Shown here piece after piece: positions 1 to 24,468 of a DNA stretch of 64,000 nucleotides. The translations under genes were made by a program, and so were the position numbers. The notes under the pieces were generated by a model. It did no database searches, was not told where the DNA came from, and worked only from the letters and a program-made list of their open reading frames with translations. Numbering within the stretch: the stretch's first letter is position 1; the number at the start of each line of letters is the position of its first letter. Where the stretch lies: assembly GCA_000320545.1 (NCBI GenBank), contig ADNK01000550.1, forward strand, positions 165,520-229,519, given 5' to 3'. The stretch is from Bigelowiella natans CCMP2755 (Eukaryota > Protista > Cercozoa).

Positions 1-290
1 AAGTAAGGGTTCGAATTCGGCATTGCCGGGATCTCTGTGGCATTGTCAATGCACGCCTGCAAGGGCTTGTTTGATTCAACACCATCGTATCTGCAGCATG
101 TCTGAAAATTTGGAGCAGCGCTCACTGACTGACTAGACGCAACTGATAGCGAAGTCAGTGAACTCATGTTTCAGATTTTTATTTCACCGCACAGAAATTG
201 CACGAAAAAGCAGCAAAGTGCTTCATTTTTTTTTGGCTCCGAAATTAGGTCCAATGAACAACGCTCTACGCAACACGACACAACCGGAAA

Positions 291-626
291 ATGCTCCCCC
301 CCCATCCACTGTGGTACGTGTGCTTGTCAGTTCGCCTGCTGCTCGCCTACCTGGTCAAACTAAACGACAAGCCAGAATGGATCAAAATGACGTTGCTCAT
401 CATGCTCGCGCTCATCTCATCCGGGTTCGCGTACAACTCGCTGTTTGGCAGCAACAACGAGGTTCAACTGCGCGCGGTGTTTTGGCACGACGCGCGATGG
501 GTGCATGCGATGCTGTTTGGCGTTGCGGCCGCTAAGCTAGCGCAGAACGAGGCGACTGCCGCTTTTTCAATTCTGATTTTTGATGTCGTGTTCTCTGTGA
601 CGTACCGGCTTGTCACATGGAAGTAA
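291..626 (+). CDS. Small multi-pass membrane protein resembling a family widespread in giant-virus genomes
   Basis: 111 aa with several hydrophobic segments. The pattern CLSVRLLLAYLVK...SGFAY...VFWHDARWVHAMLF...LIFDV resembles, from recall, the C..R..L.Y.AK / GF.Y / WW..LRP.H..L / L..DV pattern of NCLDV hypothetical membrane proteins. Confidence 0.6.
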   Translation: MLPPHPLWYVCLSVRLLLAYLVKLNDKPEWIKMTLLIMLALISSGFAYNSLFGSNNEVQLRAVFWHDARWVHAMLFGVAAAKLAQNEATAAFSILIFDVVFSVTYRLVTWK

Positions 627-742
627 AAATTTCATCACCCTCATTCAATATTTTTTTGTGATGCTTGCTTGTGAGGTCCCAAAATTGAAAGAAGTTTCGA
701 TCCAAAATCCACCACCGACCAACAAAAAAACACACAACCATC

Positions 743-1264
743 ATGATGATGATGCAACGCTGCGCAAACCCTGGTGTTGCAACAAGACGCCGTGGAGGTA
801 AGGTTGCAGACGTGGCTGAAAGTGTCAGAACACTCGAAAATCTCAAAAAACAAAGAAAAAAAACCAAAAAACGAAAAATGGATCTTCTTGAGGATGCGAA
901 AGACGCGAATAAGAAAGCTAAAGTAGTGGAAAAAAAAGAGAAGAAACTCGAAATTGAAGTGAAAAAGCAAGAAAAAAAGGTCCAAAAAGCTAGGCGCCGA
1001 CCAGTAAAGACAATGATAAAAATGAAAATTTCAAAGTCCAAAAATCCCACAATACAATATTGCATACCTGATAATGTAGGTGACGTTTTCGAGAGAAAAA
1101 ACAAAAAAGGCCAAGTGATGAGTAGGATTACGTGCGTGCAGCCTATGCCAGGTAGAATGCCAAGACCGCGATGGCAACTCGAAAACGGCAGACCGTTTCG
1201 CTCAAAATATCACCCAGAACATTCAAAACGCAGCAAGTATGAATTTGTGTCATCAAAAAAATAA
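743..1264 (+). CDS. Lys-rich basic coiled-coil hypothetical protein
   Basis: 173-aa ATG ORF that packs tightly between neighbours (its stop is 13 nt from the convergent ORF end at 1277). Confidence 0.55.
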   Translation: MMMMQRCANPGVATRRRGGKVADVAESVRTLENLKKQRKKTKKRKMDLLEDAKDANKKAKVVEKKEKKLEIEVKKQEKKVQKARRRPVKTMIKMKISKSKNPTIQYCIPDNVGDVFERKNKKGQVMSRITCVQPMPGRMPRPRWQLENGRPFRSKYHPEHSKRSKYEFVSSKK

Positions 1265-1276
1265 AATGTTCATCCA

Positions 1277-1750
1277 TTATGTTCTCATCAAACGCATTCC
1301 AATGAATGCGACTATGCCTAGCTGCACGAGCAGCATTGTGCTGTCGAAATGTTGTGCCGAGTGGAAAAAGGCTTTGAAAAGGTTGAGGGGAAGATGAAGC
1401 ATCTGCACCGTGATGCCAGCGAGCGACATCACGGTCTGCGAGAAAAAGTCAACGACCATCTCTAAGATGACGTTGAGAGGCTGCAGTAGCCTGTGCAAAA
1501 TCGACGCTGCACCGTTTCCTTTGTACAAGGCCATGTCGGCTTGTTTCCAGGAGTCTGCGGTGTCGGCTGCTAGTGCATGCTGCTGACTGAATGTCTGGTT
1601 CAAGTACAGTTCCGGCGGGGGAACCCAGCCCTTGCTAGATTGATCAAAGCTGACATTTTGCATGAGGGGTACCACGGGCAGGCCCCGGTGATTGAGCAAC
1701 GGGTTGTGGTAGCATCCGCTTTTTTTCCGTGGTGGTGAAATGGTGCTCAT
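1277..1750 (-). CDS. Hypothetical protein with a hydrophobic C-terminus (~157 aa from the ATG at 1750)
   Basis: ORF 1277..1840 in the track; likely start MSTISPP; ends in LLVQLGIVAFIGMRLMRT. Confidence 0.5.
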   Translation of the reverse strand: MSTISPPRKKSGCYHNPLLNHRGLPVVPLMQNVSFDQSSKGWVPPPELYLNQTFSQQHALAADTADSWKQADMALYKGNGAASILHRLLQPLNVILEMVVDFFSQTVMSLAGITVQMLHLPLNLFKAFFHSAQHFDSTMLLVQLGIVAFIGMRLMRT

Positions 1751-1872
1751 GGTGTGACCCTGTGCAAGGGATGTACTCAATTTGGAATTCTGTCGTCTGT
1801 GCTGCCTATTTTTTTTTCCGTGCAAAAAAAAATCGATCATGAAAAACGCACGGTTTTTGAGGAATTACGAGC

Positions 1873-4800
1873 ATGAAATTCCAAAGATCGACACGCGGGG
1901 GATTCAATGTTTGGGATCTGATCGCGAGAATTGATGCCAAAATCAAATCGGCAACAGAAAAGAAAACAGCAGAGGCCAAGCTGTCAGTGCATGTCCGATG
2001 CAGCCCCACAGAGCTGCGACTTGCGTTCTCTTCGAAATTTCATGAACACAAATCCGTGACTCAGACGGTGTCTAAGAGTGTGCACGAACACCTTGCTAAC
2101 CTGCTTGCCGTCTTGCTTCACGATGAGGAACGTGCCCGTGATGGGAACCCGAGCACCCCAGTGGCCTTCAATCTAGACATCCATCCCATCGAACCGATCG
2201 AGAAGGTGTTGACAACTCTCGAAACTCCTAGGATCGCGGATGTCAAAACCGATGTCAGCTCCATACCCGGTCCGGCGCATCTCTGGATGCTCGCTGCTCG
2301 GTACATGTTTTCACACGGCAACGCCAATCGCGTGCAGTTCGCTCGCCCGGACGAATTCACAGTTTTGAAGCTGCCAGAAACAAAAGGTTTAGGGAATGAC
2401 ATCACTAAATTTAGAAGCACCCAGTTTGCGTTGATGCGGAAGATTTTCATCCCCGTGACAATACGGTTCAAGCCAAACATGCCGCAGCATCACTTTCTCA
2501 TCGTGAAACCCGAGATGTGCAACACGTTTCTACAGGAATTGTACACCCACGAAAACACCCCGGCAGGTCCCGTTGCGCTGATGGGGTTCGCCAGAATGCA
2601 CATGCGGATTCTTAACGTCCGGCGTAATCAAATTCTGCGTTTCATCCGCACGCGCCTGACTGCGCAGTTGCAGCGGTCGGTGTACAGAATTGCTTCGGCA
2701 ACCTTGATACAAAAATCGATCAGCCTAGCGAACGACAAGGCCACAGTCGCGGACATCGCCATGCAGCAAATCGTTGAGTCCAAAGCAAGTTACAAGCGGT
2801 GGGCTTCGGTCTCGGTGCGGAAGTTCAACAACTTCTCGGTTCTCAACATCGACTTGGTCAACTTGAACCGCCATTCGCTGGCAAATCACTGGGGGTTTAT
2901 CACCCCTCTAGAGGGCGGCACCGACAACAGCGAGGGCAGCGAGCGGCACATATTGGTTGCAACGGAAACGGACAGCGGTCTGTGCGCGGCGCGATGGGTC
3001 AACAGCAAGACCTCGCGAGAGGAGGTGCTTCCTGCGATGCGCTCGATCTTTGTCGAACTGGCGATCCTGCACGGTTGTGTGTACGGAAGGGACATCAAGA
3101 CGATCCAGTCCGATGAGGGATCGGAGTTTGCGGACATCGTGAGGGAGCTCACGAAGATCAAATACACCCGAAGCAAGGAGAGCAAGAACGTCCAGGTCGA
3201 GACGGTCAACAAGCTCCTGTGCCTTCACATGTTCCGCAAATTCGTGCTGACGGACACTGGGCGGTCGAACGTCGAATTGCACGAGCAGCACTGCAACATG
3301 GTGCTTCAGAACGCCGTGGACGCGATCAACAACACCAACCGCGCTGGGCTCGGGGTCATGATCGACTCGACAAAGACGCGGAACAAGAGCATGGACGCCA
3401 AAGTCCCCGACAGCAACAGAAGACAGCGACACCTTCGCCTGCTGAAGAAACTCAACAGCGGCCACGCAAACAAAACCGAGCTGGTGTCCGGTGTGCAGGG
3501 GAGTGTCGACCTTTCCCTGAGCCCGCGCGCGCTCTGTCTGCACCACATCAACGCAAAGGCCGTCGTGGAATCCGTCTTGCACCCCGAGTTGCGGTCCTAC
3601 GACGAATCGCTGTTGCAAATGGTGCGGATGTCCCGGCCGGTCCGGGCCCGGGTGAGCGTGGAACAGAGCAGTGATGCAAGGCTTTTGCTTCTCAACGACG
3701 CGATGCAGCACCCTCGCGTGTACTCCCGGCTCGAGAGGGTAATGAAGAAAGCCAACCTGCGTGACTCCATGGATCACAGGAAAAAGTTTCTGAAGAAAGT
3801 GGGCAAGATGAACAACCAGAAGCGCGGGGCACTGGAGAGACACCGCAAGGCGACCGCGTTTGACAGGCGAATCAGCACCGAGGCCAGTGAAAACCTCATC
3901 GCACGGATGCTCAAGGACTCGCTTTGGGACAAGATGCAACGACACGTCGTGCGCTGGGGTTACACCAAGGAGAGCCGGCAGCAGATGCACCTCCCGGTGT
4001 TCTCTCTGGTGCGCGTGCTGGTCGACGACACCAAGGCCTCCGGATCCATCATGGAGAACCGAAAGGCTGCACCGACAACCCCAATCGTTGAGGAAGACCT
4101 GGATTGCCTCAAAGAGGAGCGCAAGGGAGCGGGGCGAGGCAGGGGAAACGCACGCGGGGGAAGAAGGGGGCGTGGCAGGCAGCAGCAGCAGCAAAACAAA
4201 CAGATGGAGGGCGTCTACGCCGAGTCGCACTGGTCGCTGAGCGAGAAAAACTCCGATGTCCTACAGACGGACACCCGGAAAGGCGCCGTGAACAACATCC
4301 TGGCACACAACCGAAAACGCTTCTACAAAGGGTACCGCGCGCATTGGTCCTACGACGTTTATGTCGTTCTGTGCGTGCTCCCGACCCTGCAGTCGCACAC
4401 GAACACGTCGAAGGAGGATGCCTCGAAAATCGTTCGTTTGAGGTGTAGGTACATGGTGTGCCCGCTCTGGGTGCTTGGGCGACGCTCAAAAACATTCAGG
4501 GACGCGGTCAGACGGAACCCGACCAGGCTCGACCTGGTGATGCGAGATCTGCGCAGGAACGCCAAACGGTTTTTGACCGAGGAAGGGAACTGGGCGGACG
4601 CTATCGGGGTAGCCAAGGATTTGTGGACTCGCAACCAAAGCCAGTATTACCTGATGCGGAACACCGAGAAGACCAGAGAGGTCGATGCCAAGACGGACCG
4701 GCAGCAGTACAAATCGCCATACCCGTGGAAGATCCGACCGGAATTGCAGCGCATCAACTGGAACACTAACCAGGCTTCGTTGATGTACCCATTCCTCATG

Positions 4801-5823
4801 CTCAGCAACAACGAGACCACGCGTCGGATGCACATGTGTGCCCCCATCTACGTGCACCCCTGGCAGTACGAGGAATCCAGTCTCACACAGGACAAAGCGA
4901 AAGATCTCACGTGCCCCAGAGTGTGGCGGAGAACGCTCTTGCCTGTTTATGGCATTCGACAACGCAACTGGGACGATCCTATCCGCAGCAGCAGCATCAT
5001 CAACGTCAACGACAAAAGTTACCGAGACGCGGCCAAACTCACCTCAGAGCCCCTGGCTTCGGTCGGGGTGGTCTCCGCGACACCGCTCGACCGGAAGGAC
5101 AACCAGACGGTCAGGTACAACAGCGAACGAATGACCAAGACGGACGTACAGACCGGTCTCTGCAGGCTCTGCGAGAAGAAGAACGGGATATTCTCGAGCA
5201 TCTACACCTCCATGAGTGAAATGGAAAACTTAGATAACAAAATTTTGAGCCCAGTTACGAGGAGGGTGAAGGCACAGAGCTATGTGATGTGCATGCTCTT
5301 TGTGTTTGCCGTGCGCTGTGGGTACGATTTGAAGAGTGCGCGAAACAAATGCAAACACACCAATGCTTTCAAACCTGAAAATCTCACCGCAACCGAGAAA
5401 CTCATGTACGACACCATTTTCCTCAAAACCGTGCCGAAATTAGACGGGCTTGTTTTCGAAAATAATAACGAAGCATACGACGCTCTGAACGAACAAGTCG
5501 AAAAGCTTACAAAGAAGAAGTTCGGAAGCACCAAGAACAAATCTCTTTTCGTGCGGCTCTGGATGCGGTGGTGCATGCGAAGCATGCTTTTGTTCATGGA
5601 GACCCCGAGAGGCACACAACCGTACCTGGACGCAATGCTAAAGGTGAAGAAAGCTGTTGACAACAAGTTTAGCAGAGAGATTTTCGACACCCTCCCGTCC
5701 AAGAATGAGTATTACATCACCAGCCAAGCCACAAGTGACGAGAAAGATGCGAGGGCAAAGCAGGTGCTGTATCGACTTTTCACCCGAATGAACGAGATCG
5801 GAAAAAATTTTCCTTCCCGCTGA
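1873..5823 (+). CDS. Very large retroviral-type (rve, DDE) integrase, Polinton/virophage-like, 1316 aa
   Basis: Core motifs VLNIDLVNL (D327, nt 2851), HILVATETDSGLCAARWVNSK, TIQSDEGSEF (D414, nt 3112), QVETVNKLL (E443, nt 3199) and NAVDAINNT. Downstream are FSLVRVL and FYKGYRAHWSYDVYVV (nt 4321), the latter matching the KGY..W..E.F.V motif of Polinton-type integrases. Confidence 0.8.
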   Translation: MKFQRSTRGGFNVWDLIARIDAKIKSATEKKTAEAKLSVHVRCSPTELRLAFSSKFHEHKSVTQTVSKSVHEHLANLLAVLLHDEERARDGNPSTPVAFNLDIHPIEPIEKVLTTLETPRIADVKTDVSSIPGPAHLWMLAARYMFSHGNANRVQFARPDEFTVLKLPETKGLGNDITKFRSTQFALMRKIFIPVTIRFKPNMPQHHFLIVKPEMCNTFLQELYTHENTPAGPVALMGFARMHMRILNVRRNQILRFIRTRLTAQLQRSVYRIASATLIQKSISLANDKATVADIAMQQIVESKASYKRWASVSVRKFNNFSVLNIDLVNLNRHSLANHWGFITPLEGGTDNSEGSERHILVATETDSGLCAARWVNSKTSREEVLPAMRSIFVELAILHGCVYGRDIKTIQSDEGSEFADIVRELTKIKYTRSKESKNVQVETVNKLLCLHMFRKFVLTDTGRSNVELHEQHCNMVLQNAVDAINNTNRAGLGVMIDSTKTRNKSMDAKVPDSNRRQRHLRLLKKLNSGHANKTELVSGVQGSVDLSLSPRALCLHHINAKAVVESVLHPELRSYDESLLQMVRMSRPVRARVSVEQSSDARLLLLNDAMQHPRVYSRLERVMKKANLRDSMDHRKKFLKKVGKMNNQKRGALERHRKATAFDRRISTEASENLIARMLKDSLWDKMQRHVVRWGYTKESRQQMHLPVFSLVRVLVDDTKASGSIMENRKAAPTTPIVEEDLDCLKEERKGAGRGRGNARGGRRGRGRQQQQQNKQMEGVYAESHWSLSEKNSDVLQTDTRKGAVNNILAHNRKRFYKGYRAHWSYDVYVVLCVLPTLQSHTNTSKEDASKIVRLRCRYMVCPLWVLGRRSKTFRDAVRRNPTRLDLVMRDLRRNAKRFLTEEGNWADAIGVAKDLWTRNQSQYYLMRNTEKTREVDAKTDRQQYKSPYPWKIRPELQRINWNTNQASLMYPFLMLSNNETTRRMHMCAPIYVHPWQYEESSLTQDKAKDLTCPRVWRRTLLPVYGIRQRNWDDPIRSSSIINVNDKSYRDAAKLTSEPLASVGVVSATPLDRKDNQTVRYNSERMTKTDVQTGLCRLCEKKNGIFSSIYTSMSEMENLDNKILSPVTRRVKAQSYVMCMLFVFAVRCGYDLKSARNKCKHTNAFKPENLTATEKLMYDTIFLKTVPKLDGLVFENNNEAYDALNEQVEKLTKKKFGSTKNKSLFVRLWMRWCMRSMLLFMETPRGTQPYLDAMLKVKKAVDNKFSREIFDTLPSKNEYYITSQATSDEKDARAKQVLYRLFTRMNEIGKNFPSR

Positions 5824-5857: not shown

Positions 5858-6106
5858 ATGACCAAAAAAACACACAACGGGTGCCTCATACGCAACCCAT
5901 ACCACCCAAATCACAAGAAGGCCAAGCCGCGCATCAGAGTGAGCATGTGCGTGCCGCACGCCGGGAAAAAAGGCGCGAAGCGGACATCATACTGCGCACG
6001 CACTGCGCACATCAAAGGCAAATGGAAGCGTGATCCAAACAGTCGGAACTTGGTGCAACGAAGACGATGGAAGTGTAATTACGTGAGTGGTGAACTCAGG
6101 ATTTAA
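5858..6106 (+). CDS. Small basic hypothetical protein (~82 aa)
   Basis: ATG at 5858 within ORF 5828..6106; fills the gap between the integrase and the convergent 6157 ORF; K/R-rich. Confidence 0.4.
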   Translation: MTKKTHNGCLIRNPYHPNHKKAKPRIRVSMCVPHAGKKGAKRTSYCARTAHIKGKWKRDPNSRNLVQRRRWKCNYVSGELRI

Positions 6107-6156: not shown

Positions 6157-7362
6157 TCATTTGAAATATTTCTTGTATTCCTCTTCATCATCAGAAATCC
6201 AAGGTTTCCAAAAGATGGTGATTTCCAGCTTTCTGTTCGTGTACTTCTCGCTTGTTACGTTCTTGTAGATGTCGCGACCCTGAGAGTCGAACAGCTGGAA
6301 GTGTATCCACAACTCCCCGTAGCCCTCCTCTGCATACATCTTGATGTTCTGATTGTAATGGGGTACGAACAACACGCTGTCAGGCTTTTGCAGTTTCGCT
6401 TTCATCCCTGGATGCCAATTTTGCGAAGATTGATAGTTTTGTTGAGAGTACCATTTGAAAACACGCCCGAAATCATTGAAGTTGTTCATTGTCTCTTTGT
6501 GTCGAAAATGACAACAACTTTCGTAATAGCACCACTGGAATTTTGTTACTGGTTCGTGCTTGTCGCCGTAAATGGACGTGATGTACCCGTTCTGGTAAAA
6601 TGTGTGGTCGTAAACTCTGAGTAACAATTTCTGTTCCGGTCGCATTTTCACTGTGTGTTCGTACTGTCCGAGTTTCCTCAACTCTTTGAGGAATTCAAAA
6701 GAAGGCAGGTCACAAACGAGTCCACTACTCCGAGAATTTTTTAATTGTTCATACGCTTGGGGCAATGTCTTCGTAAACACTTTCATGTCCAATTCGATCA
6801 TTTCATTTTGAGTAATCCAATGCGGTCGCACATCCATTGTCATTTTGTTGTTCAACATGTTCAATGTCATTGACCGAAAATCAATTTTTGTGCCGTTGTT
6901 GAGCATTTTCCTCATGTGTTGACTTCTGTTTGACTGTTTCCCTCTCAAACCAGTGGTGCCAAAGCGTTGACAAATCAAAGAATAGCTCACCGCTTGCATG
7001 ATGTCACCGGAAATCTGGACTCCGTTCAGGTTGTCGTGGGACAAAATGCATTTCAGAGCTCTGGAAAAACTGCATGGGTTCTCACTGCACTCCTTTCCAG
7101 AGACATCGGAGTTCTTCAACACGAAAATTTCCAGATTCGGGAATCTGTCGTTGAACCAATTTGTTGTTTGGTCCTCCAATACGGCTTCATCAAGGACAGA
7201 TGAATTCCATGCCTCCAGATGAATCTCGGTTATGTCATGCATTTTTCCTTCAGTTTTGTGTTTCAAATCATTCTTTGACACAGGACCACCCAGCAACAAA
7301 GTGTCGTAGTCGAGGTGATTGCAGGCACGCTTCACAGAAGGCGAGTAATCGATTTTGAGCAT
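6157..7362 (-). CDS. Hypothetical protein, 401 aa
   Basis: Long uninterrupted ATG ORF; a possible LRR-like segment (RFPNLEIFVL) near the N-terminus; no family recognised. Confidence 0.7.
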   Translation of the reverse strand: MLKIDYSPSVKRACNHLDYDTLLLGGPVSKNDLKHKTEGKMHDITEIHLEAWNSSVLDEAVLEDQTTNWFNDRFPNLEIFVLKNSDVSGKECSENPCSFSRALKCILSHDNLNGVQISGDIMQAVSYSLICQRFGTTGLRGKQSNRSQHMRKMLNNGTKIDFRSMTLNMLNNKMTMDVRPHWITQNEMIELDMKVFTKTLPQAYEQLKNSRSSGLVCDLPSFEFLKELRKLGQYEHTVKMRPEQKLLLRVYDHTFYQNGYITSIYGDKHEPVTKFQWCYYESCCHFRHKETMNNFNDFGRVFKWYSQQNYQSSQNWHPGMKAKLQKPDSVLFVPHYNQNIKMYAEEGYGELWIHFQLFDSQGRDIYKNVTSEKYTNRKLEITIFWKPWISDDEEEYKKYFK

Positions 7363-8050
7363 GATGGCGCCAGATCGGGTCAGGGGGTTGTTGCCAGTGT
7401 TTGTTTGAATTGTGTTTCAACCACAAGATTCAACCAAGTGCTTGATTTTGTTCATTTTTTTTGTCGACTCTTCTTTGCAATTCTGAACAATTGAGCCTGC
7501 ATTTTTGTCACGTTTTGCGTGGTTTGGCCCTAAAAATGACACGAAATGGCGTGTTGATCAGCAGAAAAATGCTGTGTTCATTTTGCCATGGAAACCCAGC
7601 CACTTTTCCATGCTGCGACATAGATGTAACGATGATTCACTGACAACAAACAAAGAGACACTGTGCAAGATGAAACGTCGAAAAATGCGTTCGGGAATGC
7701 CCTTTTTTTGATTTTGCCTAAAATTTCACCAAACACAAGATTTTTTGGACATTTTTTGAAATTTAGCCGAGAAAGAATTTGCTATTTGTCGCACCCTTGA
7801 CACGGCATTGAATTCTGACTTCGGAGTTAAGAACTCAGTCTGACTGGGCAGATGACCTCCTGGATGGTTTCCGTGGTGTTTTGCCTAAAACGATCCACGG
7901 AATTTCTGGACATCTGGAGACCCCGTCGAGACGAAAAATTATTTTTTTGGCAAAAGAGCAAAATTCAAGATGAGGAAGGGGGGGGTACCTCTTTTGTTTT
8001 TTGACTGGGCAAATGTCACGATTTTCCATCTCGACACGACAAATTTCATC

Positions 8051-8281
8051 ATGGATGACCTGTCTCCATCACCACGGGATCCAAAAATTGTCTTCAACCA
8101 TTTTGTAGCACATCCATTGATGCATTGGCAGGAATTCAACAAAATTTGCAAAAAAGTGAGAGAGAGATACGAATCTCTGCCAAAGTTCAAAAAAACACGA
8201 AAGATAGTTTGCTTGTCCCCATCACCACAAAAAGCTAGAATTGTGGACGAATGCCAAGTTAAACTTTCATCAATGCGTTAA
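8051..8281 (+). CDS. Possible small hypothetical protein (76 aa from ATG 8051)
   Basis: Part of ORF 7970..8281; preceded by an AT-rich spacer that shares a motif with the spacer before 10413. Confidence 0.3.
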   Translation: MDDLSPSPRDPKIVFNHFVAHPLMHWQEFNKICKKVRERYESLPKFKKTRKIVCLSPSPQKARIVDECQVKLSSMR

Positions 8282-15557: not shown

Positions 15558-15561
15558 AGGT

Positions 15562-15798: not shown

Positions 15799-15999
15799 TG
15801 CATCTGCTTTCTTAATCCCGGGTGCTGGTCCCGGCGGTGCCTGTGGAGGTGTTCCTCCTCCTTCCTTAGCGTCCGTATCGCCCTTCCTTTCCTGTTTCTG
15901 CTCGTGCCCTTGCACGGCCTGCGAGCCAAAGTCCTGCTGTTCTTCTAGCTGCTGTGACATTGTTAGTCAAATCGTTTCCCGTGTGTGGAAGCCAAAGGT

Positions 16000-16325: not shown

Positions 16326-16329
16326 CTCA

Positions 16330-17054
16330 AGAAAACCGAAAGAGTGGATTTGTATCAAAGCATATCGTACAAAATCCACGCGTACGTCAAACTCCTTGAA
16401 ATGTGTTACATCCACACGCACAGAATCAACATCATGTATCTAGAGGACACTGGTTTGGCAAAAATCATGGAAACAGGGGTCATGTCAGGCCACCCAGTGT
16501 GCGAGTTTCAAGAAAGAGCATGCAACCTCAACATAGAAACCACACACGTGGCAACGCCGAATGCGTCTGACGTGGTTGCGTACACTGTCAAACTCATGTC
16601 GATGAAAGGCTTGGTCCACGACAACGAGCACGTGTTAAAAGTCGACAATGGAATCGCTGAGTATTACACTGGAAAAAAGAAAAACGGATACAACAAAACG
16701 CTGAGGCAGGTTGAGGATGGCAAGGTCACGCTCACCGAATTCGTTTACAATGAGGTGATGTCGAGAATGGGGGGCATGAACAGCAGAGTGAACCCAGAGG
16801 ATGTTGTCAAAAAGTACCTGACGAAATTGAGGAATGCCGGGATCACTCTGAAACGCAATTTGACTTCCTTTTCGACCAAGAATCTCACATTTGACTGTCT
16901 GACTTTGTCTTTGCGGATGCGAAGTCATAGGGGGTATTTCGATCGACTACAGAAAGGAACAGTCGGTAATGCAAAATGCCACAAAAAACAAAAAACAAAA
17001 AACAGCATGCTGATCTTCATGTCCCCTTTCTTTGCAATCAGGAACGCCGTATGA
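16330..17054 (+). pseudogene. Middle part of the interrupted helicase gene (D5_N-like region)
   Basis: In frame with 10413..11211 after element removal; SFSTKNLTFDCLTLSLR loosely resembles the L.F.NG..DL.T..FR motif of D5_N domains. Confidence 0.65.
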
Positions 17055-19134
17055 CACCAGTGTGAGGAGTGAGAAAGAGCTTTGGAAGAATTTTTGGGAC
17101 CTCGACATCTTTGTGCCGAACGGCGAGCACACAAAGGTGTTGTATGATGACAACTTTTTCATCAAGATCAATCGTGACCAGTTGGGAAACAAGGCTAAGC
17201 GTGGCACGTGGTTTCAAAACGAGTATTTCCCAGACCCCACTGATGTCAAGTATGAGGACAGTTATTTGCACAATGAAGAGGCCTCGCGAAGCACCTACAA
17301 CCCGTCATTGACCATGTACCACATAATCGCAAAGACAGTGTACGCCGGCCTTGTGAAAACAAAGTACATGGAAAATGTTGGCGTGTACTTTTGGAGAGTG
17401 GGAGACGCAGGCACCGGGAAATCAACTTATCTGCAAATGATGAAACACATCTTGAGTGGAACTGGACCGGAACAAGTCATGAGCATGAGCTCCCATGACG
17501 GTGAAACCGCTTCGAACTTCAGTTTTGCCAGAATAGCCAAACACAACGGCGGTTACTACAGGGCGGTGCACTGCGAGGAGGCACAAAACATAAAATTGAA
17601 CGTTCGGCAAATCGTGTTTGCATCGATGTCAAACGCACCAATCACCACGGCTGGGAAGCACCAGCAGGCCACGGAGCAACGGTTAAACATTGCGTGGGAA
17701 TTTAACAGCAACGCGACGGTTGCGACCGTGATGAACCAGGGCTCCATTGCTGCAAATTGCCGCCGCGTGCAACTCTTCGAGCACAACGCCAAGAACATGC
17801 AAAAGAAAGACGAATCTAACATGACAACGTGGATAAACAACAAGGTGCTTCACAGTCTGATGGCAATTGCTATCTCCTACACCAGCTGCATGTTTGTCAT
17901 GGAAGGCAAGAATTTCTTGAAGGACACTTTGCAGCAGATGAGCGAGTCAGAAAAATTCAAACATTTGAGCAAGAAAACCAAAATGTTCGCGTTTGTTGAA
18001 TCGGGATATTTCGTCAAAAAAGAACACGGTCTTGTCCCATACAGCGTGTTCAAAAAAGCTTATGACCATTTCAAATACCCGCCGGTAAAAGGGAATGTGT
18101 ACCAATTGTACAACGAGAAACAGGACAGTGGCAAGGTTCTAGAGAAGATATGGGGCATAAAGGTTCTGAACGTCTTGAATGTCCCCAAAGAATGCAAAGG
18201 CGTACAAAAATCCAGGGGAAGGTCTTTGAAAGGGGTTTTCCTTCCGGTGTTCAACGACTGTGCTTACAAGGAACCAAGTGAGTTTTACCGAAGTAACAGA
18301 CCGGTGTACAACTCCACAGGTTCCGCTGAAACCAAACTTCGGGGTTCAGACACCGACATTACAGACAGGTACATCATTGGCGTCGAGGCTTCACCAGATG
18401 CCTTGAAGAATTATCATGGATTAAACTTCACCAATTACAACAAAAAATTGTCGCTGTGTGATGCAATGGTCCAAAAAAACGAAAGTGAGGTGACATATTC
18501 ATTGGTTGAATTGCAGCAGTTAAACGATGATGCAGCTTTTGACAACATCAATGGAGACGTGTTGGATGAAACGGAAAAGGATCGCTTGAGAACAGTTCTT
18601 CATTTGATCAATGCTTCCACTGCGATGAAGGAAAAAAGACAAAAAATGGAGGAAAAAATCCAAACAATGGAGCAAAAGGTCCCCACAAAATTTCACCAGC
18701 GCAAATTCTGTGGATGGCCGTTGTGGGTGCTCCGAAAAAAAGGCCTTTTGGACAAGATGCTCACGGAAACCGAAGAAGGATCCAAAAAGTTCAAACCAGT
18801 GACCAGGAACGTGGGTCGTGGACTTCAGCACCAGGAAAAGGTTGTGTTGGACTGGCTGGAAACCTACATGAACATCGATTCAAGCAATGGCAAAGCGCGT
18901 TTCAGTTTCAACAAGGACAAGGCAACAACTGCAAAGTTCAACGACATCATCTCACACATCAACAACATCACATGTGTCTTGGTGTCCCGATTCCACGATC
19001 GTTTGCACTATGACAAGAGAATTTGTGACAACGACGAAAACAAAGCACATTTTGAGGAACTCTTAGACAAGACTAGCAAGTATTATCAATTGATTGAAAA
19101 GACGTGCTCGAAACGCAACATGGAAAGACAGTGA
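17032..19134 (+). CDS. D5-like superfamily 3 helicase domain protein (probably the 3' part of a larger gene)
   Basis: Walker A GDAGTGKST (nt 17401-17427), Walker B AVHCEEA and motif C WEFNSN. The ORF starts at a TTG and overlaps the preceding ORF by 23 nt in another frame. Confidence 0.85.
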   Translation: MQSGTPYDTSVRSEKELWKNFWDLDIFVPNGEHTKVLYDDNFFIKINRDQLGNKAKRGTWFQNEYFPDPTDVKYEDSYLHNEEASRSTYNPSLTMYHIIAKTVYAGLVKTKYMENVGVYFWRVGDAGTGKSTYLQMMKHILSGTGPEQVMSMSSHDGETASNFSFARIAKHNGGYYRAVHCEEAQNIKLNVRQIVFASMSNAPITTAGKHQQATEQRLNIAWEFNSNATVATVMNQGSIAANCRRVQLFEHNAKNMQKKDESNMTTWINNKVLHSLMAIAISYTSCMFVMEGKNFLKDTLQQMSESEKFKHLSKKTKMFAFVESGYFVKKEHGLVPYSVFKKAYDHFKYPPVKGNVYQLYNEKQDSGKVLEKIWGIKVLNVLNVPKECKGVQKSRGRSLKGVFLPVFNDCAYKEPSEFYRSNRPVYNSTGSAETKLRGSDTDITDRYIIGVEASPDALKNYHGLNFTNYNKKLSLCDAMVQKNESEVTYSLVELQQLNDDAAFDNINGDVLDETEKDRLRTVLHLINASTAMKEKRQKMEEKIQTMEQKVPTKFHQRKFCGWPLWVLRKKGLLDKMLTETEEGSKKFKPVTRNVGRGLQHQEKVVLDWLETYMNIDSSNGKARFSFNKDKATTAKFNDIISHINNITCVLVSRFHDRLHYDKRICDNDENKAHFEELLDKTSKYYQLIEKTCSKRNMERQ

Positions 19135-19235
19135 ATTTGCAGACTTGAACATGCTCTTGTGTTCAAAATGACACCGTTAAAAACATTGCGCGCATCAACA
19201 TGTTGGCGCTTTGAATTTCTGATGTTAGTCACATT

Positions 19236-19357
19236 GGCGCCATGCACGAGGCAGCGACGCGCCATTGATGCCAAGTCGCTAAAAACGACGCCAAGGCGAT
19301 TCTGCGCAATTTGAAGTCGGGCCGCGCCGCGCTGCCAAGTGGCACATGATGGCAATG
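19236..19357. repeat. Intergenic repeat B, copy 1 (GC-rich, ~120 bp)
   Basis: GCACGAGGCAGCGACGCGCCATTGATGCCAAG...AAAACGACGCCAAGGCG...GGCAATG; also found at 20511, 21424 and inverted at 23014. Confidence 0.85.
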
Positions 19358-19432
19358 GAGTTCACAAAAATCATGTTGAGATGTTGTTGAAATTTTGAGG
19401 AACATTCAGGCACCGAATGATCTAGTTTTCTT

Positions 19433-20260
19433 CTAGTGTTCTTTGACTACTTCCATGCCCATTTGCAAAAACGCAAATCTGAATTTTTGCATCATTGCCT
19501 GGTGGCAATCTGTCTCGTTCTTCAATTTCTTCACAAGATGTTCCAAATGATCGTTCAGAAACATGGAATCCATTTTCATGATGTTGTTCAGTTTCTCATA
19601 CTCTGCATGAATGACTCGGAACTCTTTTGCCGCCCGATCGCGGAGATAGAGAACATCTTTTGCAAGTTCTTTGACATCATCTTCGTTGTGATAACCAAAA
19701 TGAACGAACAATTCTTGGCATCTTTCTAGTGAGATTTCTTGGAAACCACAAATGCTGTTTTTCAACGATTTGAGATGGAATTCTGTCGTGAAACCTCCCC
19801 TGCCGTCGTCAAGGCTCCGGATGATGTCGTAGACGTTTTCGTGGAGCGTGCCCATGTGATTGCCGTACGTCCATTTGAGAGGCATGAGCCATCTGCAAGG
19901 GTTTTCCGTGGTCCAGAAGAATTTTGCAACTGTGGACATGTCTCTGATTAGCCGACAGAGAATCCGGTGTGGGGCTTGAAAATTTCCAGGAGTTTTGAAG
20001 TCCGTCCGCGAGAATCTGGGAATGGTTTTTTGCCGGAACAATGCATCCCGTCTCTTCGCTCTTTCAACAGTTTTCCAATTATCGGGCGTTTTGTTCTGGT
20101 CCTTGAAGGCTTCGAAAATTTCTTCAAAGTCAGGGACGTCAGTTCTTTTTGATTCCAATAGAGTGTCTCTGTTCTGTCTCTGGATTTTCCGAAGTTTCTC
20201 GCGTCGTCGCTTCTTTTCTGGACTCTTTTTTCGATTTTTGACTGAACCTTTGATTGGCAT
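19433..20260 (-). CDS. Hypothetical protein (~275 aa from ATG 20260), basic N-terminus, coiled-coil C-terminus
   Basis: Part of ORF 19433..20395; the ATG of MPIKGSVKNRKK lies 47 nt downstream of repeat A. Confidence 0.7.
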   Translation of the reverse strand: MPIKGSVKNRKKSPEKKRRREKLRKIQRQNRDTLLESKRTDVPDFEEIFEAFKDQNKTPDNWKTVERAKRRDALFRQKTIPRFSRTDFKTPGNFQAPHRILCRLIRDMSTVAKFFWTTENPCRWLMPLKWTYGNHMGTLHENVYDIIRSLDDGRGGFTTEFHLKSLKNSICGFQEISLERCQELFVHFGYHNEDDVKELAKDVLYLRDRAAKEFRVIHAEYEKLNNIMKMDSMFLNDHLEHLVKKLKNETDCHQAMMQKFRFAFLQMGMEVVKEH

Positions 20261-20306
20261 GGCTCTGATTTCTTGCTTTGAGGGTTTGATTTGTGGCTCC
20301 GAGGCT

Positions 20307-20370
20307 ATTTGGATTCTGATGAGAATGAGGAAGTGAGAAGGTGAGGATCGAGGCTCGGAGATTGCACGGG
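20307..20370 (-). promoter_or_regulatory. Repeat A copy 1: 64-bp putative promoter/5'UTR core
   Basis: 63/64 identical to the copies at 21244-21307 and 23280-23343; always 31-47 nt upstream of an ATG and preceded by CACGTG boxes. Confidence 0.7.
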
Positions 20371-20510
20371 ATGGCCATGTGGCTTTTTGGGCCATGCCAC
20401 GTGACCCTCACAATTTGAAATTTTCAATTTTGGAAGCCACGTGGCCCTCTCGTCAGAACGAAGTACAAAGGAAAAAAAACAAAGACAAAGGAGGTGGTTT
20501 GTTCGTTTTG

Positions 20511-20654
20511 CGCCATGCACGGGGCAGCGACGCGCCATTGATGCCAAGCCATTCAAAACGACGCCAAGGCGATTCCGCGCAATCCGAAGCCGTGCCGCGC
20601 TGCGCGGCGCCGCGCCGCGCCGCGCTGCCTGCTGAGTGGCACATGTTGGCAATG
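20511..20654. repeat. Intergenic repeat B, copy 2
   Basis: Direct similarity to 19236-19357, with an expanded GCGCC tract. Confidence 0.85.
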
Positions 20655-20684
20655 CACACCAAGTTTGTGGCAAGAAAAGCTTGT

Positions 20685-20999
20685 TCAATTTTTAGATTTG
20701 GGCAGCACACAGCGCTTCTCATTGTCGAGTGCAAACATGACAGGGCCTTTCGAGTCGAAGGAAACGAAATGTCCTCCTCTCTCCATTTTCTTGTAGGTTT
20801 TGTTCAGGTCGTCTTGGGTGACTGTTGGAAGTGTGCAAAACCCGAAGCGGTCACTCCAAGTGTCCAAGAAGAGACCAGTCAACGATTTCTTTTTTTTGTC
20901 AGAAAGGGAGTAGAAAGGATCGAAGGTGGTGTTGGGTGGCAGACGAAAACCTCCAAAATTTTCACACCAATTGTTGAAAATTTCCGCATCGTGTCTCAT
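20685..20999 (-). CDS. Hypothetical protein, 104 aa
   Basis: Its ATG overlaps the TGA of the H3-tail ORF (ATGA). Confidence 0.5.
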   Translation of the reverse strand: MRHDAEIFNNWCENFGGFRLPPNTTFDPFYSLSDKKKKSLTGLFLDTWSDRFGFCTLPTVTQDDLNKTYKKMERGGHFVSFDSKGPVMFALDNEKRCVLPKSKN

Positions 21000-21211
21000 C
21001 CAATGTCTCGTTCATCATTTAGGAGTTTTGCCTCCAAAAGAAAAACGTTCAATTCAATGAAGGGTTTGCCAGTGATCTCGCTGAGAGGGCAAAAGCTTGG
21101 TGACACTTGATTGTATTTCTTGTTCTTTCCAGTGCGCCAACCCCGTGACGTTGGTCGCCGACCAACTAGTCCTCCAGTGGACTTGCGTGGGGTTTGTTTG
21201 GTGCGTGCCAT
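20996..21211 (-). CDS. Histone H3 N-terminal tail fused to unrelated sequence (71 aa)
   Basis: MARTKQTPRKSTGG followed by non-histone sequence; 38 of the first 42 nt are identical to the H3 gene at 21990; repeat A lies 33 nt upstream. Confidence 0.75.
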   Translation of the reverse strand: MARTKQTPRKSTGGLVGRRPTSRGWRTGKNKKYNQVSPSFCPLSEITGKPFIELNVFLLEAKLLNDERDIG

Positions 21212-21243
21212 TGTTTCTTTTTGATTGTTTAGGGTTTGAGGTG

Positions 21244-21307
21244 ATTTGGATTCTGATGAGAATGAGGAAGTGAGAAAGTGAGGATCGAGGCTCGGAGATT
21301 GCACGGG
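21244..21307 (-). promoter_or_regulatory. Repeat A copy 2
   Basis: Identical over 64 bp to the reverse complement of 23280-23343; three CACGTG boxes upstream (21311-21405). Confidence 0.7.
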
Positions 21308-21423
21308 GTAGCCACGTGGCTTTTTCAACCAAGCCACGTGATGTTGCTGGTTCGGCCATGTGACCCTCTTGCTTTGAATTGTTCCTTTTTTAGAAAGCCA
21401 CGTGGCTTTCTTGTCACGACGAA

Positions 21424-21510
21424 ATGCACGAGGCAGCGACGCGCCATTTGTGCAAAGCCGCTTCGAAACGGCGCCAAGGCGGGTTTTGGCGCGGCAACAC
21501 GTTGGCAATG
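21424..21510. repeat. Intergenic repeat B, copy 3 (shorter, more diverged)
   Basis: GCACGAGGCAGCGACGCGCCATT...CGCCAAGGCG...TTGGCAATG. Confidence 0.8.
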
Positions 21511-21573
21511 GACAGAGGGCTCACGGACAAAGTTTTGCGGTGATGAAAAATCAAACTTGGGTGCATGCAAGCA

Positions 21574-21990
21574 TCAGGCTCTCTCCCCGCGAATGCGGCG
21601 AGCAAGCTGAATGTCTTTGACCATGATTGTCACTCTTTTGGCGTGGATGGCGCAAAGATTGGTGTCCTCGAACAACGACACCAAGTAGGCCTCTGAGGCC
21701 TCCTGCAACGCCAAGATGGCGGCGCTCTGAAAACGGAGTCCTTCTTTGAAATCCTCGGCGATTTCCCTGCAAAGGCGCTGAAACGGCAGTTTGCGGATGA
21801 GGAGGTCGGTGGATTTCTGGTAGCGGCGGATCTGACGCAGGGCGACGGTTCCAGGGCGGTACCGATGAGGCTTCTTCACTCCTCCAGTGGCAGGTGCTGA
21901 TTTTCTGACTTTGGACGCTTTGGTGGCGAGCTGTTTGCGAGGAGCCTTTCCTCCAGTGGTTTTGCGTGCGGTCTGTTTGGTGCGTGCCAT
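21574..21990 (-). CDS. H3: Histone H3, divergent, intronless, 138 aa
   Basis: [73 protein letters not shown]...[33 protein letters not shown]. True ATG at 21990; the longer ORF in the track is upstream read-through. Confidence 0.97.
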
Positions 21991-22386
21991 GGTGAGCCAA
22001 GCAATGGTCGAGGGGTTTGAGTTGTGAGGACTTGAGCTGATGAGGGAGTGAGAGGCCGGGCCTTGGAATCCAAGTGAACGAGCCACGTGGCTTTTGACCA
22101 AAATCCACATGGCTTTGTTGGACGGGGTCACGTGGCATTTGTTCGAAGACCACGTGACCACAAGATCCGTTTTTCCCTTTTTTGGTCGTGTGACCTTGTT
22201 CAACAGGCCACGTGACTACCCCGCCCTGCTTCTGTTTTGACACCTGCAACCACGTGACCCGAACCCTGGTGAGCCACGTGGTCCACCCCCTTCAACTCCG
22301 AGGCCTGGACCCTCACTTCCTCATCTGCTCAAGTCCTCACAACTCAAACACCCGACAAACTTTGAACACCTTCGCCTCTGAACCTG
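21991..22386. promoter_or_regulatory. Putative bidirectional promoter with six CACGTG boxes between H3 and the acidic-protein gene
   Basis: CACGTG near 22084, 22130, 22151, 22209, 22251 and 22275; both arms carry a CTCACT(T/C)CCTCATC.GCTCAAGTCCTCACAACTCAAAC leader related to repeat A. Confidence 0.65.
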
Positions 22387-22962
22387 ATGCCACGTCCAAA
22401 ACCGAATAACCCAACCAAGAACCGCACCGTCAAAGATGACGCTCCGAAGCGCCAGTCATCACGCAACAGGAAGGCGCCACCCAAGTTCGACCCCTCCGCC
22501 GAAGAGACCACGCATGACCCTGCAATCAAACGTCAGAAGAGTGAAGGCGACGAAAAGAAGAGCCGTGACCCCCCCTCCCAAGTCGACGTTGATGATGCCG
22601 TGGAAACAGTCGCCGAGAACTCCCCAATGACCAAAGCTGACGTCAAGGAAAATTCCACCATCAATGGGGGCGATGATGATGAGAAAGTCGAAGAGAAGGA
22701 TGAAGAAGAGCGTGAAGAAGAGATGGATGATGAAGAGCATCATGATGAGGAGGAAGACGCCGAAGAGAAAGAGAAAAAGCGGCTTGCCAAGATCGCTCGT
22801 CAGCAGGCAAGGTTCGAGAAAATGTGGCATGTCGATGGCACGAAATTGCTTGAAGGAGGAAAACGCGTCAAAGGAGTCCGTGTGATGCCGGGCGGCAAAC
22901 TTGAAAACGTCTCCTGCTGGGGGCAAGAAACCACTGTGGTGAATTTTCACAAACACATTTGA
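22387..22962 (+). CDS. Hypothetical protein, 191 aa, with a basic N-terminus and a long Asp/Glu tract
   Basis: ATG ORF divergent from H3; RQSSRNRKAPPKFDP motif; DDDEKVEEKDEEEREEEMDDEEHHDEEEDAEE tract. Confidence 0.75.
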   Translation: MPRPKPNNPTKNRTVKDDAPKRQSSRNRKAPPKFDPSAEETTHDPAIKRQKSEGDEKKSRDPPSQVDVDDAVETVAENSPMTKADVKENSTINGGDDDEKVEEKDEEEREEEMDDEEHHDEEEDAEEKEKKRLAKIARQQARFEKMWHVDGTKLLEGGKRVKGVRVMPGGKLENVSCWGQETTVVNFHKHI

Positions 22963-23013
22963 ACGTTGAAATGTCAGTTTTTTTCATCAAGCTTTTCTGA
23001 TCTCAAACTTGAT

Positions 23014-23136
23014 GTGCATTGCCAACGTGCGCCACTTCGCAGCGCGGCACGGCGCGGCATTGCGCAACATTGCCTTTTCGTCGTTTTGAATGGCTTGGCA
23101 TCGATGGCGCCTGGCGCGTCGCTGCCTCGTGCATGG
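23014..23136. repeat. Intergenic repeat B, copy 4 (inverted)
   Basis: Reverse complement of copies 1-3; similarity to copy 2 extends to the AAGTTTG...AGAAAAGCTTG flank. Confidence 0.85.
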
Positions 23137-23279
23137 AGCAAAACGAACAAATTGTCTTCTTCGCATTTCGTTGTGACAGGAAGCCACGTGGCCTCTGGAA
23201 ACCAAAAATCAAAACTGAAAGGGTCACGTGGTTGGCAAAACCAGGTCACGTGGTTCGGTCGAAAAAGCCACGTGGCTTG

Positions 23280-23343
23280 CCCGTGCAATCTCCGAGCCTC
23301 GATCCTCACTTTCTCACTTCCTCATTCTCATCAGAATCCAAAT
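23280..23343 (+). promoter_or_regulatory. Repeat A copy 3
   Basis: CCCGTGCAATCTCCGAGCCTCGATCCTCACTTTCTCACTTCCTCATTCTCATCAGAATCCAAAT; four CACGTG boxes upstream (23185-23275); ATG 31 nt downstream. Confidence 0.7.
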
Positions 23344-23373
23344 CACCTCAAAGCCAGAAATCAAAAAGAAACA

Positions 23374-24468
23374 ATGCGAACCAAGACCCGGCACACAAAA
23401 TCAAAAACAATGCCAACCAAGACAAAATCAAATGGGCCCAGGATGAGATGCCAGACGAGTGAGACGGAGAAGAAAAATGTCACAGCTCGCATTCCACCAA
23501 CCATAAAAAACCAACTCAAAAATTTGGAGAAAGCAGCCAAGCACAGAGAATATTGCCCATGCGAGGGAAATTTCGAGGAATGTTGCGACAACCCAGCCAA
23601 CTACCCAGTGCAACGTCACGGGGTTGAGCGGAAATCAGTCAAGGACTTTGGCGGCAAAAAGGAGCTACAAAAAGTGGAGCGACGAAAAGCGATTTTGAAA
23701 AACCAAAAAAATGCCAGGACCACCGTGAAGGATTTCAACAGGATGATCAAATCACTGGAGAATTTGTTGGAAAAATTGAAGCAGTTCAGTGAAACAGTGG
23801 AAAAGGAGTACCTCCATTTCCGTGACCAACACAAAACGCCATGCGCGGACAAGAAAAAGTGCCATGCAGAGTGGGAGTTGTTCAAAAATGACCTGGAATT
23901 TGTCTCAACGAGGCTTTGGAACTTCAGTTACGTTCGTTTTCCACTCCACAAGGCCATGAAAAGGGTCGTGCACAAGATGAACAGGAGCATCAACCAAATA
24001 TCTTCTGATTCATTCAAAAGAAAGGTGATTCGAGAACTCAATGACGTCAAGGGATTCACCAAGATTTTCAGAAAAGGAGGCGACTTGCCAGAAACTCTAA
24101 ACATGTTGAAAGAGCACAAGGATGACATGAAGGCATTGTCAAAAGATTATGATTTGAAACCAGCCTCCATTGATCGCCACGAGAGTTTTTTGGGCATTTT
24201 TGAGGAACTTTGCAACATCGTGTTTGAGGTGTCAGGGGACTTGAGTGACACATTCAATGACATGACTTCAAAGCAGATTTTGAAAATTTCAGATGTCGTC
24301 AAAAACATTTATCTGGAATTGAACAAACCCCACAAATGGAATGATGGGGACGGACCTGATGGCGAGTCAGACTCACGTGATTCAGATGATTCTGGTTCTG
24401 AATTTGAGCGTTTTTATGACACTGATGATGATGACAATGATGAACGTTGTGATGATGTTAAACAATGA
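23374..24468 (+). CDS. Hypothetical helical protein (~364 aa from ATG 23374) with an acidic C-terminus
   Basis: Part of ORF 22966..24468; the upstream part of that ORF is read-through of the repeats; contains CPCEGNFEECC. Confidence 0.75.
   Translation: MRTKTRHTKSKTMPTKTKSNGPRMRCQTSETEKKNVTARIPPTIKNQLKNLEKAAKHREYCPCEGNFEECCDNPANYPVQRHGVERKSVKDFGGKKELQKVERRKAILKNQKNARTTVKDFNRMIKSLENLLEKLKQFSETVEKEYLHFRDQHKTPCADKKKCHAEWELFKNDLEFVSTRLWNFSYVRFPLHKAMKRVVHKMNRSINQISSDSFKRKVIRELNDVKGFTKIFRKGGDLPETLNMLKEHKDDMKALSKDYDLKPASIDRHESFLGIFEELCNIVFEVSGDLSDTFNDMTSKQILKISDVVKNIYLELNKPHKWNDGDGPDGESDSRDSDDSGSEFERFYDTDDDDNDERCDDVKQ

Follow-up and report, generated by a model that had tools for sequence, protein, structure and literature searches.

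A foreign-composition island with a long retroviral-type integrase, a D5-like helicase and a histone H3 cassette in the Bigelowiella natans genome

The DNA analysed here is a stretch of 64,000 nucleotides from Bigelowiella natans CCMP2755 (contig ADNK01000550.1, positions 165,520 to 229,519), which we refer to as the window in its full length. Its left part is an island of foreign composition that carries a very long integrase of the retroviral type, a D5-like helicase and a cassette of genes grouped around a histone H3 variant. The island occupies positions 1-24773, as judged from the observed-to-expected ratio (o/e) of the dinucleotide TpA and a Markov composition change point near 24773, and its left end lies beyond the window. 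Its composition differs from that of the host DNA far beyond chance, with a GC content of 47-48% versus 42-43% and a TpA o/e of 0.31 in one island arm and 0.20 in the other, versus 0.58-0.74 in host stretches. Without a long terminal repeat (LTR) retrotransposon that lies inside it, the island measures ~19.6 kb and is ~81% coding. To the right of ~25 kb follow host genes, namely a spliced FKBP gene and an ATG17-like gene, and microsatellite-rich DNA. The FKBP gene (27089-27800, minus strand) has short introns and was recognised by an FKBP_C match (E 4e-14) and an exon walk. A first-pass annotation had described an intronless virus-like block of ~24 kb, rich in orphan open reading frames (ORFs), beside intron-rich host genes. 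The block, its orphans and the spliced host neighbours on the right, for which the FKBP exons speak, all held up, whereas the block is probably not free of introns, given a 76-nt intron candidate in the helicase gene. The block is also not a single element, as it holds a 5.1-kb Ty3 LTR retrotransposon that had been overlooked.

The integrase gene (1873-5823, plus strand) codes for a protein of 1316 amino acids, which the acidic triad, Foldseek and a structure alignment identify as retroviral-fold (rve-like). The triad residues D327, D414 and E443 are intact and invariant in the alignment, and together with the C-terminal motif (Y)KGYRxHWSY they are invariant or nearly so in all five aligned integrase sequences. 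A similar motif is found at the C-terminus of Polinton integrases. Confidence in the AlphaFold model is limited to the core (mean predicted local distance difference test score, pLDDT, 46.5). With this model, Foldseek retrieved the HIV and STLV integrases (E 3e-6 to 5e-6), the core aligned with the MMTV integrase over 134 residues (Z 13.8, root-mean-square deviation 2.6), and matches to the MELD-virus and mavirus integrases were also obtained. The C-terminal strands gave a weak SH3/Tudor-like match (Z ~6). The rve integrase of the first-pass annotation is thus borne out, at about four times the length of the mavirus (358 amino acids) or MELD (327 amino acids) enzymes. Pfam, PHROGs and NCBIfam do not detect the 1316-amino-acid protein, and PDB sequence searches with the integrase and the helicase returned chance matches only. 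The protein is not merely the integrase of the Ty3 element, as it is encoded by a separate ORF; the two integrases of the block are unrelated in sequence (hhalign probability 0.3%).

A phmmer search with the first 1176 integrase residues against 1.84 billion representatives gave only five matches: a B. natans paralogue (P0001) and four environmental proteins of 804-1020 amino acids. No integrase relatives were found in IMG/VR or in prokaryote genomes. The genomic context could be read for one of the four environmental relatives, P0005 (955 amino acids), which is located in three metagenome contigs. In two of them, L002 and L003, its neighbours are dense ORFs with matches to Pox_A32 (E 6e-6) and DVNP (E 6e-12) and an endonuclease VII, and by this gene content the context is giant-virus-like. 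The source of these contigs is a candidate for a self-integrating giant virus. The stretches concerned, L002 209-11741 and L003 1-12785, combine P0005 with the A32 ATPase, DVNP and endonuclease VII genes, and they also encode a 556-amino-acid protein that presumably carries tyrosine-recombinase-like motifs.

The helicase gene lies on the plus strand and is found in several pieces. Its 5' part (10335-11211) codes for an acidic coiled-coil region and is interrupted by the Ty3 element, after which the reading frame resumes in register at 16332. The middle part (16330-16965) corresponds to residues 1-177 of the JGI Bigna1 gene model P0017 and lies within the structure alignments of the Atlas with D5-like proteins. 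It is followed by the probable spliceosomal intron of 76 nt (16966-17041), with a GTAATG donor, a pyrimidine tract and a CAG acceptor, and by the 3' exon (17042-19134). This exon codes for a D5-like superfamily 3 (SF3) helicase with the Walker A motif GDAGTGKS and a DUF5906 match (E 4e-4), and its paralogue in a second copy of the element, P0018, is 88% identical. P0017 was grouped by the Atlas with D5-like DUF5906/D5_N proteins (score 0.97, 213 shared features), in agreement with the helicase assignment made at first pass. The top structural row was a Nucleocytoviricota cluster and most other rows were phage or bacterial; no primase domain was seen in the protein. The break at ~17.0 kb had also been considered as a frameshift, a reading that we replaced by that of an intron in view of the GT..AG ends and the shared junction. 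The junction is the same in model P0017, the 76-nt stretch resembles short host introns, and the ORF of P0018 begins at the same point as the 17042 exon; none of the aligned reads spans the stretch. The presence of the break in both copies favours an intron over a sequencing error. A contig of 1690 nt from run X15, whose RNA type is a guess by the tool, matches 17463-19153 without substitutions and with a single gap. This contig ends 19 nt past the stop codon and X15 is blank from 19360 on, so that transcription of the 3' part of the gene seems likely. Three short contigs from run X17 all fall within the helicase.

The element that interrupts the helicase gene (11212-16325, minus strand, 5.1 kb) has all the hallmarks of a Ty3/gypsy retrotransposon. 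Its LTRs (11212-11537 and 16000-16325) have TG..CA ends and are 100% identical, a 4-bp target duplication (CTCA) flanks it, and its pol ORF (11589-15383) contains Pfam protease, RVT_1, RNase H and Integrase_H2C2 domains in the order protease, reverse transcriptase, RNase H, integrase. Two further copies lie in the host DNA of the window, at 31228-36389 (plus strand, target duplication TCCT) and at 56274-61986 (minus strand, recognised by sequence identity), and they are ~99.9% identical to the nested copy. Three copies of ~99.9% identity with 4-bp target duplications within 64 kb are, on the sequence, the mark of a very recent burst, and by its position within an island gene the insertion makes the island proper the older of the two. 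The copies differ in detail, either in reality or through assembly errors: most of gag is absent from the first, which has an extra partial LTR at 15562-15798, the second is without part of the reverse transcriptase, and small indels mark the third, next to which an LTR fragment lies at 61987-62122.

Between 19.2 and 24.5 kb lies the H3 cassette, whose five genes have an upstream module with CACGTG boxes in common. Gene A (19433-20260, minus strand) encodes a 275-amino-acid orphan and has the shared upstream and downstream modules. The H3-tail fusion gene (20685-21211, minus strand), present as two overlapping ORFs in the window, encodes ARTKQTPRKSTGG followed by unrelated sequence. Next comes the full-length H3 variant of 138 amino acids (21574-21990, minus strand; Pfam Histone E 1e-45), which starts at 21990 and not at 22110. 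Gene D (22387-22962, plus strand) encodes an acidic orphan of 191 amino acids, stands head-to-head with the H3 gene and has an H3-type upstream module. Gene E (23374-24468, plus strand) encodes a 364-amino-acid orphan starting with MRTK; over 221 nt, its upstream region and start match the H3-tail gene at 84% identity. A downstream module is common to four of the genes, and outside 19.2-23.4 kb none of the shared modules occurs. The promoter motif GCCACGTGGC, allowing up to one mismatch, occurs 13 times where 1.24 matches are expected in the window, and 12 of the 13 lie in 19.3-23.3 kb; no such motif was found in IMG/VR. The thirteenth box (28186-28195) lies upstream of the host FKBP gene and is possibly a host promoter element.

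The ORF of the H3-tail gene that starts at 21211 shares 12 of its first 14 residues with the island H3, with near-identical DNA, and then diverges. In a contig of the DNA run X2, one extra base at 21001 joins it to the frame 20999-20685, giving a single frame of ~175 amino acids. The two histone H3 genes of the first-pass annotation therefore come down to one full H3, with a corrected start, and a fusion that carries a 14-residue H3 tail and is not a second H3. The full H3 has the complete histone fold and a tail with K4, K9, K27 and K36. Its changes include S10T, P121V and a two-residue insertion, giving KASKVRKS before K27, which precedes R26-K27. The tail changes adjoin K9 and K27 and leave K4 as it is, as in many viral H3 proteins. 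Over its 138 residues, the best cellular H3 shares 125 identities, an Amorphochlora H3 124 and the best of 53 full-length viral H3 proteins (from 60 H3 loci in IMG/VR) 116. A quick tree of 98 rows, with de-duplicated cellular rows of at least 120 identities and without the B. natans host H3, placed it in a mainly cellular group (SH-aLRT 81). Taken together, the sequences make a recent capture of H3 from a eukaryote likely. Apart from H3 itself, the 60 viral H3 loci have no gene in common with the island, and the insertion of the island H3 is seen in none of them. These loci (L004-L063) each hold a single H3, many of them changed around K27-S28 or with tail insertions, and two (L062 and L063) matched only the first 22-25 H3 residues.

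The simplest history for this arrangement would be that an H3 transcription unit was captured and then duplicated, with the regulatory DNA retained and other sequence put in place of the coding part. The head-to-head partner of a histone gene is often another histone gene, and the acidic gene D product is a candidate histone-binding protein. The idea of a chromatin-modulation module, raised at first pass, would fit the anatomy of the cassette. In B. natans, heterochromatin with H3K9me3 and H3K27me3 lies on transposons and repressed genes (10.1101/2025.03.17.643675).

The depletion of TpA marks the whole island and is lowest in the cassette, where o/e per 2 kb is 0.07-0.13 versus 0.26-0.43 in the rest; it is 0.15 in the non-coding parts of the island and 1.05 in the interior of the retrotransposon. 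At codon junctions, observed versus expected TA counts are 7 vs 47 in the helicase gene, 18 vs 55 in the integrase gene, 3 vs 30 in ORF 6157, 1 vs 28 in ORF 23374 and 0 vs 5.7 in the H3 gene, and two controls are without this loss (22 vs 23 in one host gene, 111 vs 87 in the retrotransposon pol). Within the island genes, TA is nevertheless retained in tyrosine codons. The near-absence of TA at junctions together with its retention in tyrosine codons therefore indicates that a pressure against TpA acts on the element and that selection acts on the element proteins, orphans included. In the decayed integrase paralogue P0001, all three tyrosines in the 154 aligned residues are replaced by cysteine, and most of its 18 differences are compatible with A-to-G changes, as inferred from the protein and with the direction unproven. 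Possibly, an A-to-G process at TA sites acts on foreign DNA; repeat-induced point mutation of fungi works in the opposite direction. A literature search for the Tyr-sparing loss of TpA gave no paper using the phrase among those listed.

Further copies of the element are present in B. natans. Database proteins that match the island exactly or nearly so are JGI Bigna1 gene models of B. natans, in line with this alga as the host; P0011 contains the window integrase and P0017 the helicase. Proteins of a second copy are 96% (integrase, P0010), 95.5% (P0012), 90% (P0015) and 88% (helicase, P0018) identical to those of the island. P0010, P0012, P0015 and P0018 each occur on a 43,443-nt Logan contig, presumably one and the same. 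P0001 is an 88% identical, decayed integrase model elsewhere in the genome. The search for other copies envisaged at first pass thus yielded two, one with 88-96% identity at the protein level and one that is decayed, and the integrase is present in at least three copies in all. The right end of the island, a zone at 24505-25201 marked by X2 depth and hairpins, is probably repeated elsewhere. The summed X2 contig depth, which is not a copy number, is 370 at 24505-24740 versus 35-52 over most of the island. Loose ends of X2 contigs show a cassette module with other neighbours, one of them an AT-centred palindrome that is also found, in two related forms (~24784-24838 and ~25137-25201), at the island-host boundary. 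These palindromes might represent the ends of the element, origins or a small repeat.

A host retroelement with its target duplication sits inside the island, which is good evidence that the latter belongs to the nuclear DNA of the host. Of the sampled words of 17400-27390, about three quarters of which is island and about one quarter host DNA, a fraction of 0.92-0.96 is present in 14 DNA-type runs from 12 studies under one organism label; one of these runs may be the source of the assembly. Contigs of X2 cover all 30 bins of 17400-24740, and none of the aligned reads spans the island-host junction. Contamination or a misjoin, which had been named at first pass among the possible refutations of the virus-like block, is unlikely in view of the Ty3 copy, which has its target duplication and is common to the host DNA, and the 14 DNA-type runs.

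What kind of element is this? The sequence supports an integrated virus-related mobile element, and to this extent the integrating DNA virus or large transposon proposed at first pass stands, with its class left unsettled. With moderate confidence, we propose that the island is the right-hand part of a multi-copy B. natans element that likely originated from a giant-virus-related large DNA virus, likely inserts itself and carries a captured H3 predicted to load onto, or act as a decoy for, H3K9/K27 silencing. According to this model, the integrase would act in the manner of Polinton and retroviral integrases and link the ends of the element with host DNA, and the helicase would unwind the element so that a polymerase encoded elsewhere can copy it. 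The H3 gene would have come from a cell, together with its own promoter and 3' signals; four duplications of this unit would have followed, with other coding sequence put in, in one case leaving only the first 14 H3 codons. Host RNA polymerase II would read the element genes and the host spliceosome process their transcripts. The H3 variant and the tail fusion might then act on, or decoy, H3K9me3/H3K27me3 silencing.

Several observations weigh against this model. The ~19.6 kb of the element within the window yielded neither a capsid, packaging ATPase or polymerase gene nor a pair of terminal repeats or a target duplication, and because these genes and ends were not found and the left end lies outside the window, the class of the element and its self-insertion stay at the level of prediction. 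The link to giant viruses consists of one distant integrase relative (29% identity over the core) and weak matches of small proteins. Phages, plasmids and Polinton-like viruses (PLVs) have D5-like helicases too, and the helicase gene is interrupted by the Ty3 element in this copy. The linkage of H3 and integrase is known from this copy only, and the cassette, with its own repeats and lower TpA, could be a separate module. In the quick H3 tree, 56 of 79 forks are open, so that it is mostly unresolved, and the host H3 is missing from it. On the cassette, X15 and X17 gave no contig, and a third RNA-type run, X21, of which 6% was read, gave 23 reads on 7.3 kb with the bins of H3 and gene A blank. 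According to a warning of the tool, conserved genes may have been removed by filtering, which makes the RNA null weak for H3. None of the runs containing 17400-27390 is recorded as RNA, and runs with shares below 0.2 (X18-X20 and X22-X24) were left out of account.

Among the other explanations, a capsid-less giant DNA transposon, made up of integrase, helicase and cargo and already free of any virion stage, survives best, although we regard it as unlikely. The absence of structural genes from ~19.6 kb is what one would expect of it, as are an intact integrase in two copies that are 96% alike, a probable intron common to both copies and promoter modules of the host type. However, the left part of the element lies beyond the window, its ends and a target duplication were not found, and the only integrase relative that could be located sits in a virus-like contig.

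Somewhat less probable still is a divergent PLV or virophage, whose capsid module would lie to the left of the window or be too divergent for detection. The first-pass annotation had leaned towards this class, and B. natans is indeed already known for such inserts, a fact it had overlooked: 38 virophage-like elements, PLVs and inserts of nucleocytoplasmic large DNA viruses (NCLDVs) are described in earlier reports (PMC6723459, PMC5499653, PMC5294986, PMC8547959). The island has an rve integrase, as Polintons do, and an SF3 replication helicase of the D5-like type, where PLVs and virophages have SF3 or SF1 enzymes; PLVs combine an rve integrase with a primase-helicase and usually measure 15-30 kb (PMC10120064), and the fold matches of the integrase include the MELD-virus and mavirus enzymes. 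Against this stand the absence of a detectable major capsid protein, penton, ATPase, protease or pPolB from the 19.6 kb, the roughly fourfold length of the integrase, and the position of its located relative among giant-virus-type genes; PLVs are defined by capsid genes, and none was seen. The assignment named at first pass is therefore unproven. Moreover, the described PLVs of B. natans have an SF1 helicase, and its virophage-like copies have a GC content below that of their flanks, whereas that of the island lies above it.

It is also conceivable, but improbable, that the island consists of two neighbours adjacent by chance. One would be a viral relic with integrase and helicase, the other an independent family of repeats derived from a host H3 gene. 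Such a family would account for the confinement of the modules to the cassette, for its minimum of TpA o/e, for the X2 loose ends that show the module elsewhere with different neighbours and for the near-cellular H3. Yet there is neither host-like DNA nor a visible junction between helicase and cassette, one X2 contig spans the helicase through gene A, and the Tyr-sparing loss of TpA is common to both parts and absent from host genes. A mirusvirus relic is very improbable: H3 is a core gene of mirusviruses, present in 54% of genomes (PMC10132985), and many carry spliceosomal introns (PMC12768974), but their H3 is described as phylogenetically distinct, whereas the island H3 is near-cellular, no HK97-fold capsid, portal, terminase or other hallmark was seen in the window, and the word integrase is absent from the main text of both papers.

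The proposed giant-virus-related element can also be set beside the known systems. With Polintons, PLVs and mavirus, it has in common the rve-type integrase together with an SF3 helicase, the multi-copy insertion into a protist genome and retrotransposons nested in or near the elements (PMC10120064, PMC8547959); it differs by the lack of visible capsid, ATPase and pPolB genes, by the 1316-amino-acid integrase and by the H3 genes. Giant endogenous viral elements resemble it in their dense orphan ORFs, D5-like helicase, invasion by transposable elements and, in some genes, spliceosomal introns (10.64898/2026.10.09.758095). In contrast to them, the island has a long rve integrase and no NCLDV core gene in the window; PolB, major capsid protein, A32, VLTF3 and RNA polymerase were not seen in the ~19.6 kb, Pfam, PHROGs and NCBIfam gave no match to a double-jelly-roll capsid, minor capsid or A32-like ATPase in the window part of the element, and no relatives of the helicase or of the membrane protein were found in IMG/VR. 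The journal version of the work on the Chlamydomonas punuivirus reportedly describes a polintovirus-like integrase. Its preprint gives no integrase candidate for the 6-bp duplications. Endogenous nimaviruses are a further case of large DNA viruses with a captured retroviral-type integrase (PMC10871703), but they are crustacean viruses of another class. Stand-alone H3 genes with changes around K27 are common in giant viruses and mirusviruses (the 60 IMG/VR loci), and in some giant viruses single H3 genes were recently acquired. Compared with these, the H3 of the island stands nearer to the cellular proteins, and it is accompanied by a tail-only fusion and duplicated promoter modules.

Each ingredient of the island thus has a precedent, whereas our literature searches gave no description of the long integrase family, of its occurrence in both a giant-virus-like contig and an algal insert, of the H3 cassette or of the TpA signature. 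These searches, mostly of titles and the beginnings of abstracts, likewise found no description of an H3-bearing integrase element in B. natans, and Blanc et al. (2015) may list the locus. As a wider and doubtful idea, we speculate that there might be undescribed self-integrating large DNA elements with a very long integrase family that also occurs in giant viruses, an H3 unit captured from the host and used as a reusable cassette yielding a variant and tail decoys against K9/K27 silencing, and mutational erosion directed at TpA and specific to these elements. How giant-virus DNA enters protist chromosomes is largely an open question, and the long rve-type integrase, shared by a giant-virus-like contig and by an insert present in several copies in a model alga that can be cultured, is a candidate open to testing. 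Single viral H3 genes are common; with a duplicated H3 cassette and a tail-only fusion, the idea that histone decoys counteract silencing could be tested directly in a protist. The Tyr-sparing loss of TpA, in turn, is a sign of a process, mutational or selective, that acts on foreign DNA.

The remaining ORFs of the island are mostly orphans. A hydrophobic protein of 111 amino acids (291-626, plus strand), 95.5% identical to P0012 on the contig of the second copy, has no match in Pfam, PHROGs, NCBIfam or IMG/VR. This is the NCLDV-like membrane protein of the first-pass annotation, whose proposed likeness to NCLDV proteins is not borne out by these searches. The basic coiled-coil orphan at 743-1264 (plus strand) has only sub-threshold coiled-coil matches, among them one to TIGR01554 that is below the cutoff and limited to the N-terminal coil. 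No match in Pfam, PHROGs or NCBIfam was obtained for an orphan with a hydrophobic C-terminus (1277-1840, minus strand) or for a small orphan at 7970-8281 (plus strand). A basic protein of 82 amino acids (5858-6106, plus strand) belongs to a viral family without known function (phrog_10346, E 1.5e-4) and is 36% identical to a protein of Pelagibacter phage HTVC023P (E 4e-3). An IMG/VR scan for it gave one confirmed stretch but no locus. Weak phmmer matches of the ORFs at 1277 and 5858 to viral loci turned out to be noise in non-coding frames. The 401-amino-acid orphan at 6157-7362 (minus strand) is 90% identical to P0015 of the second copy; its model has a pLDDT of 28, its Atlas matches stay below 0.9 and a weak LRR-like similarity is the only lead. 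A penton identity, suggested by a motif, is at most conceivable. In the 454-amino-acid orphan at 8426-9790 (minus strand), TA is retained mainly in tyrosine codons. An Rfam scan of 1-27000 gave no match.

On the host side, the ORF at 39399-40352 contains six tandem repeats of 66-69 nt that encode mucin-like units rich in threonine, glutamate and alanine. The minus strand of 48200-50300 appears to hold exons of a kinesin-like host gene, recognised by eye from its motifs.

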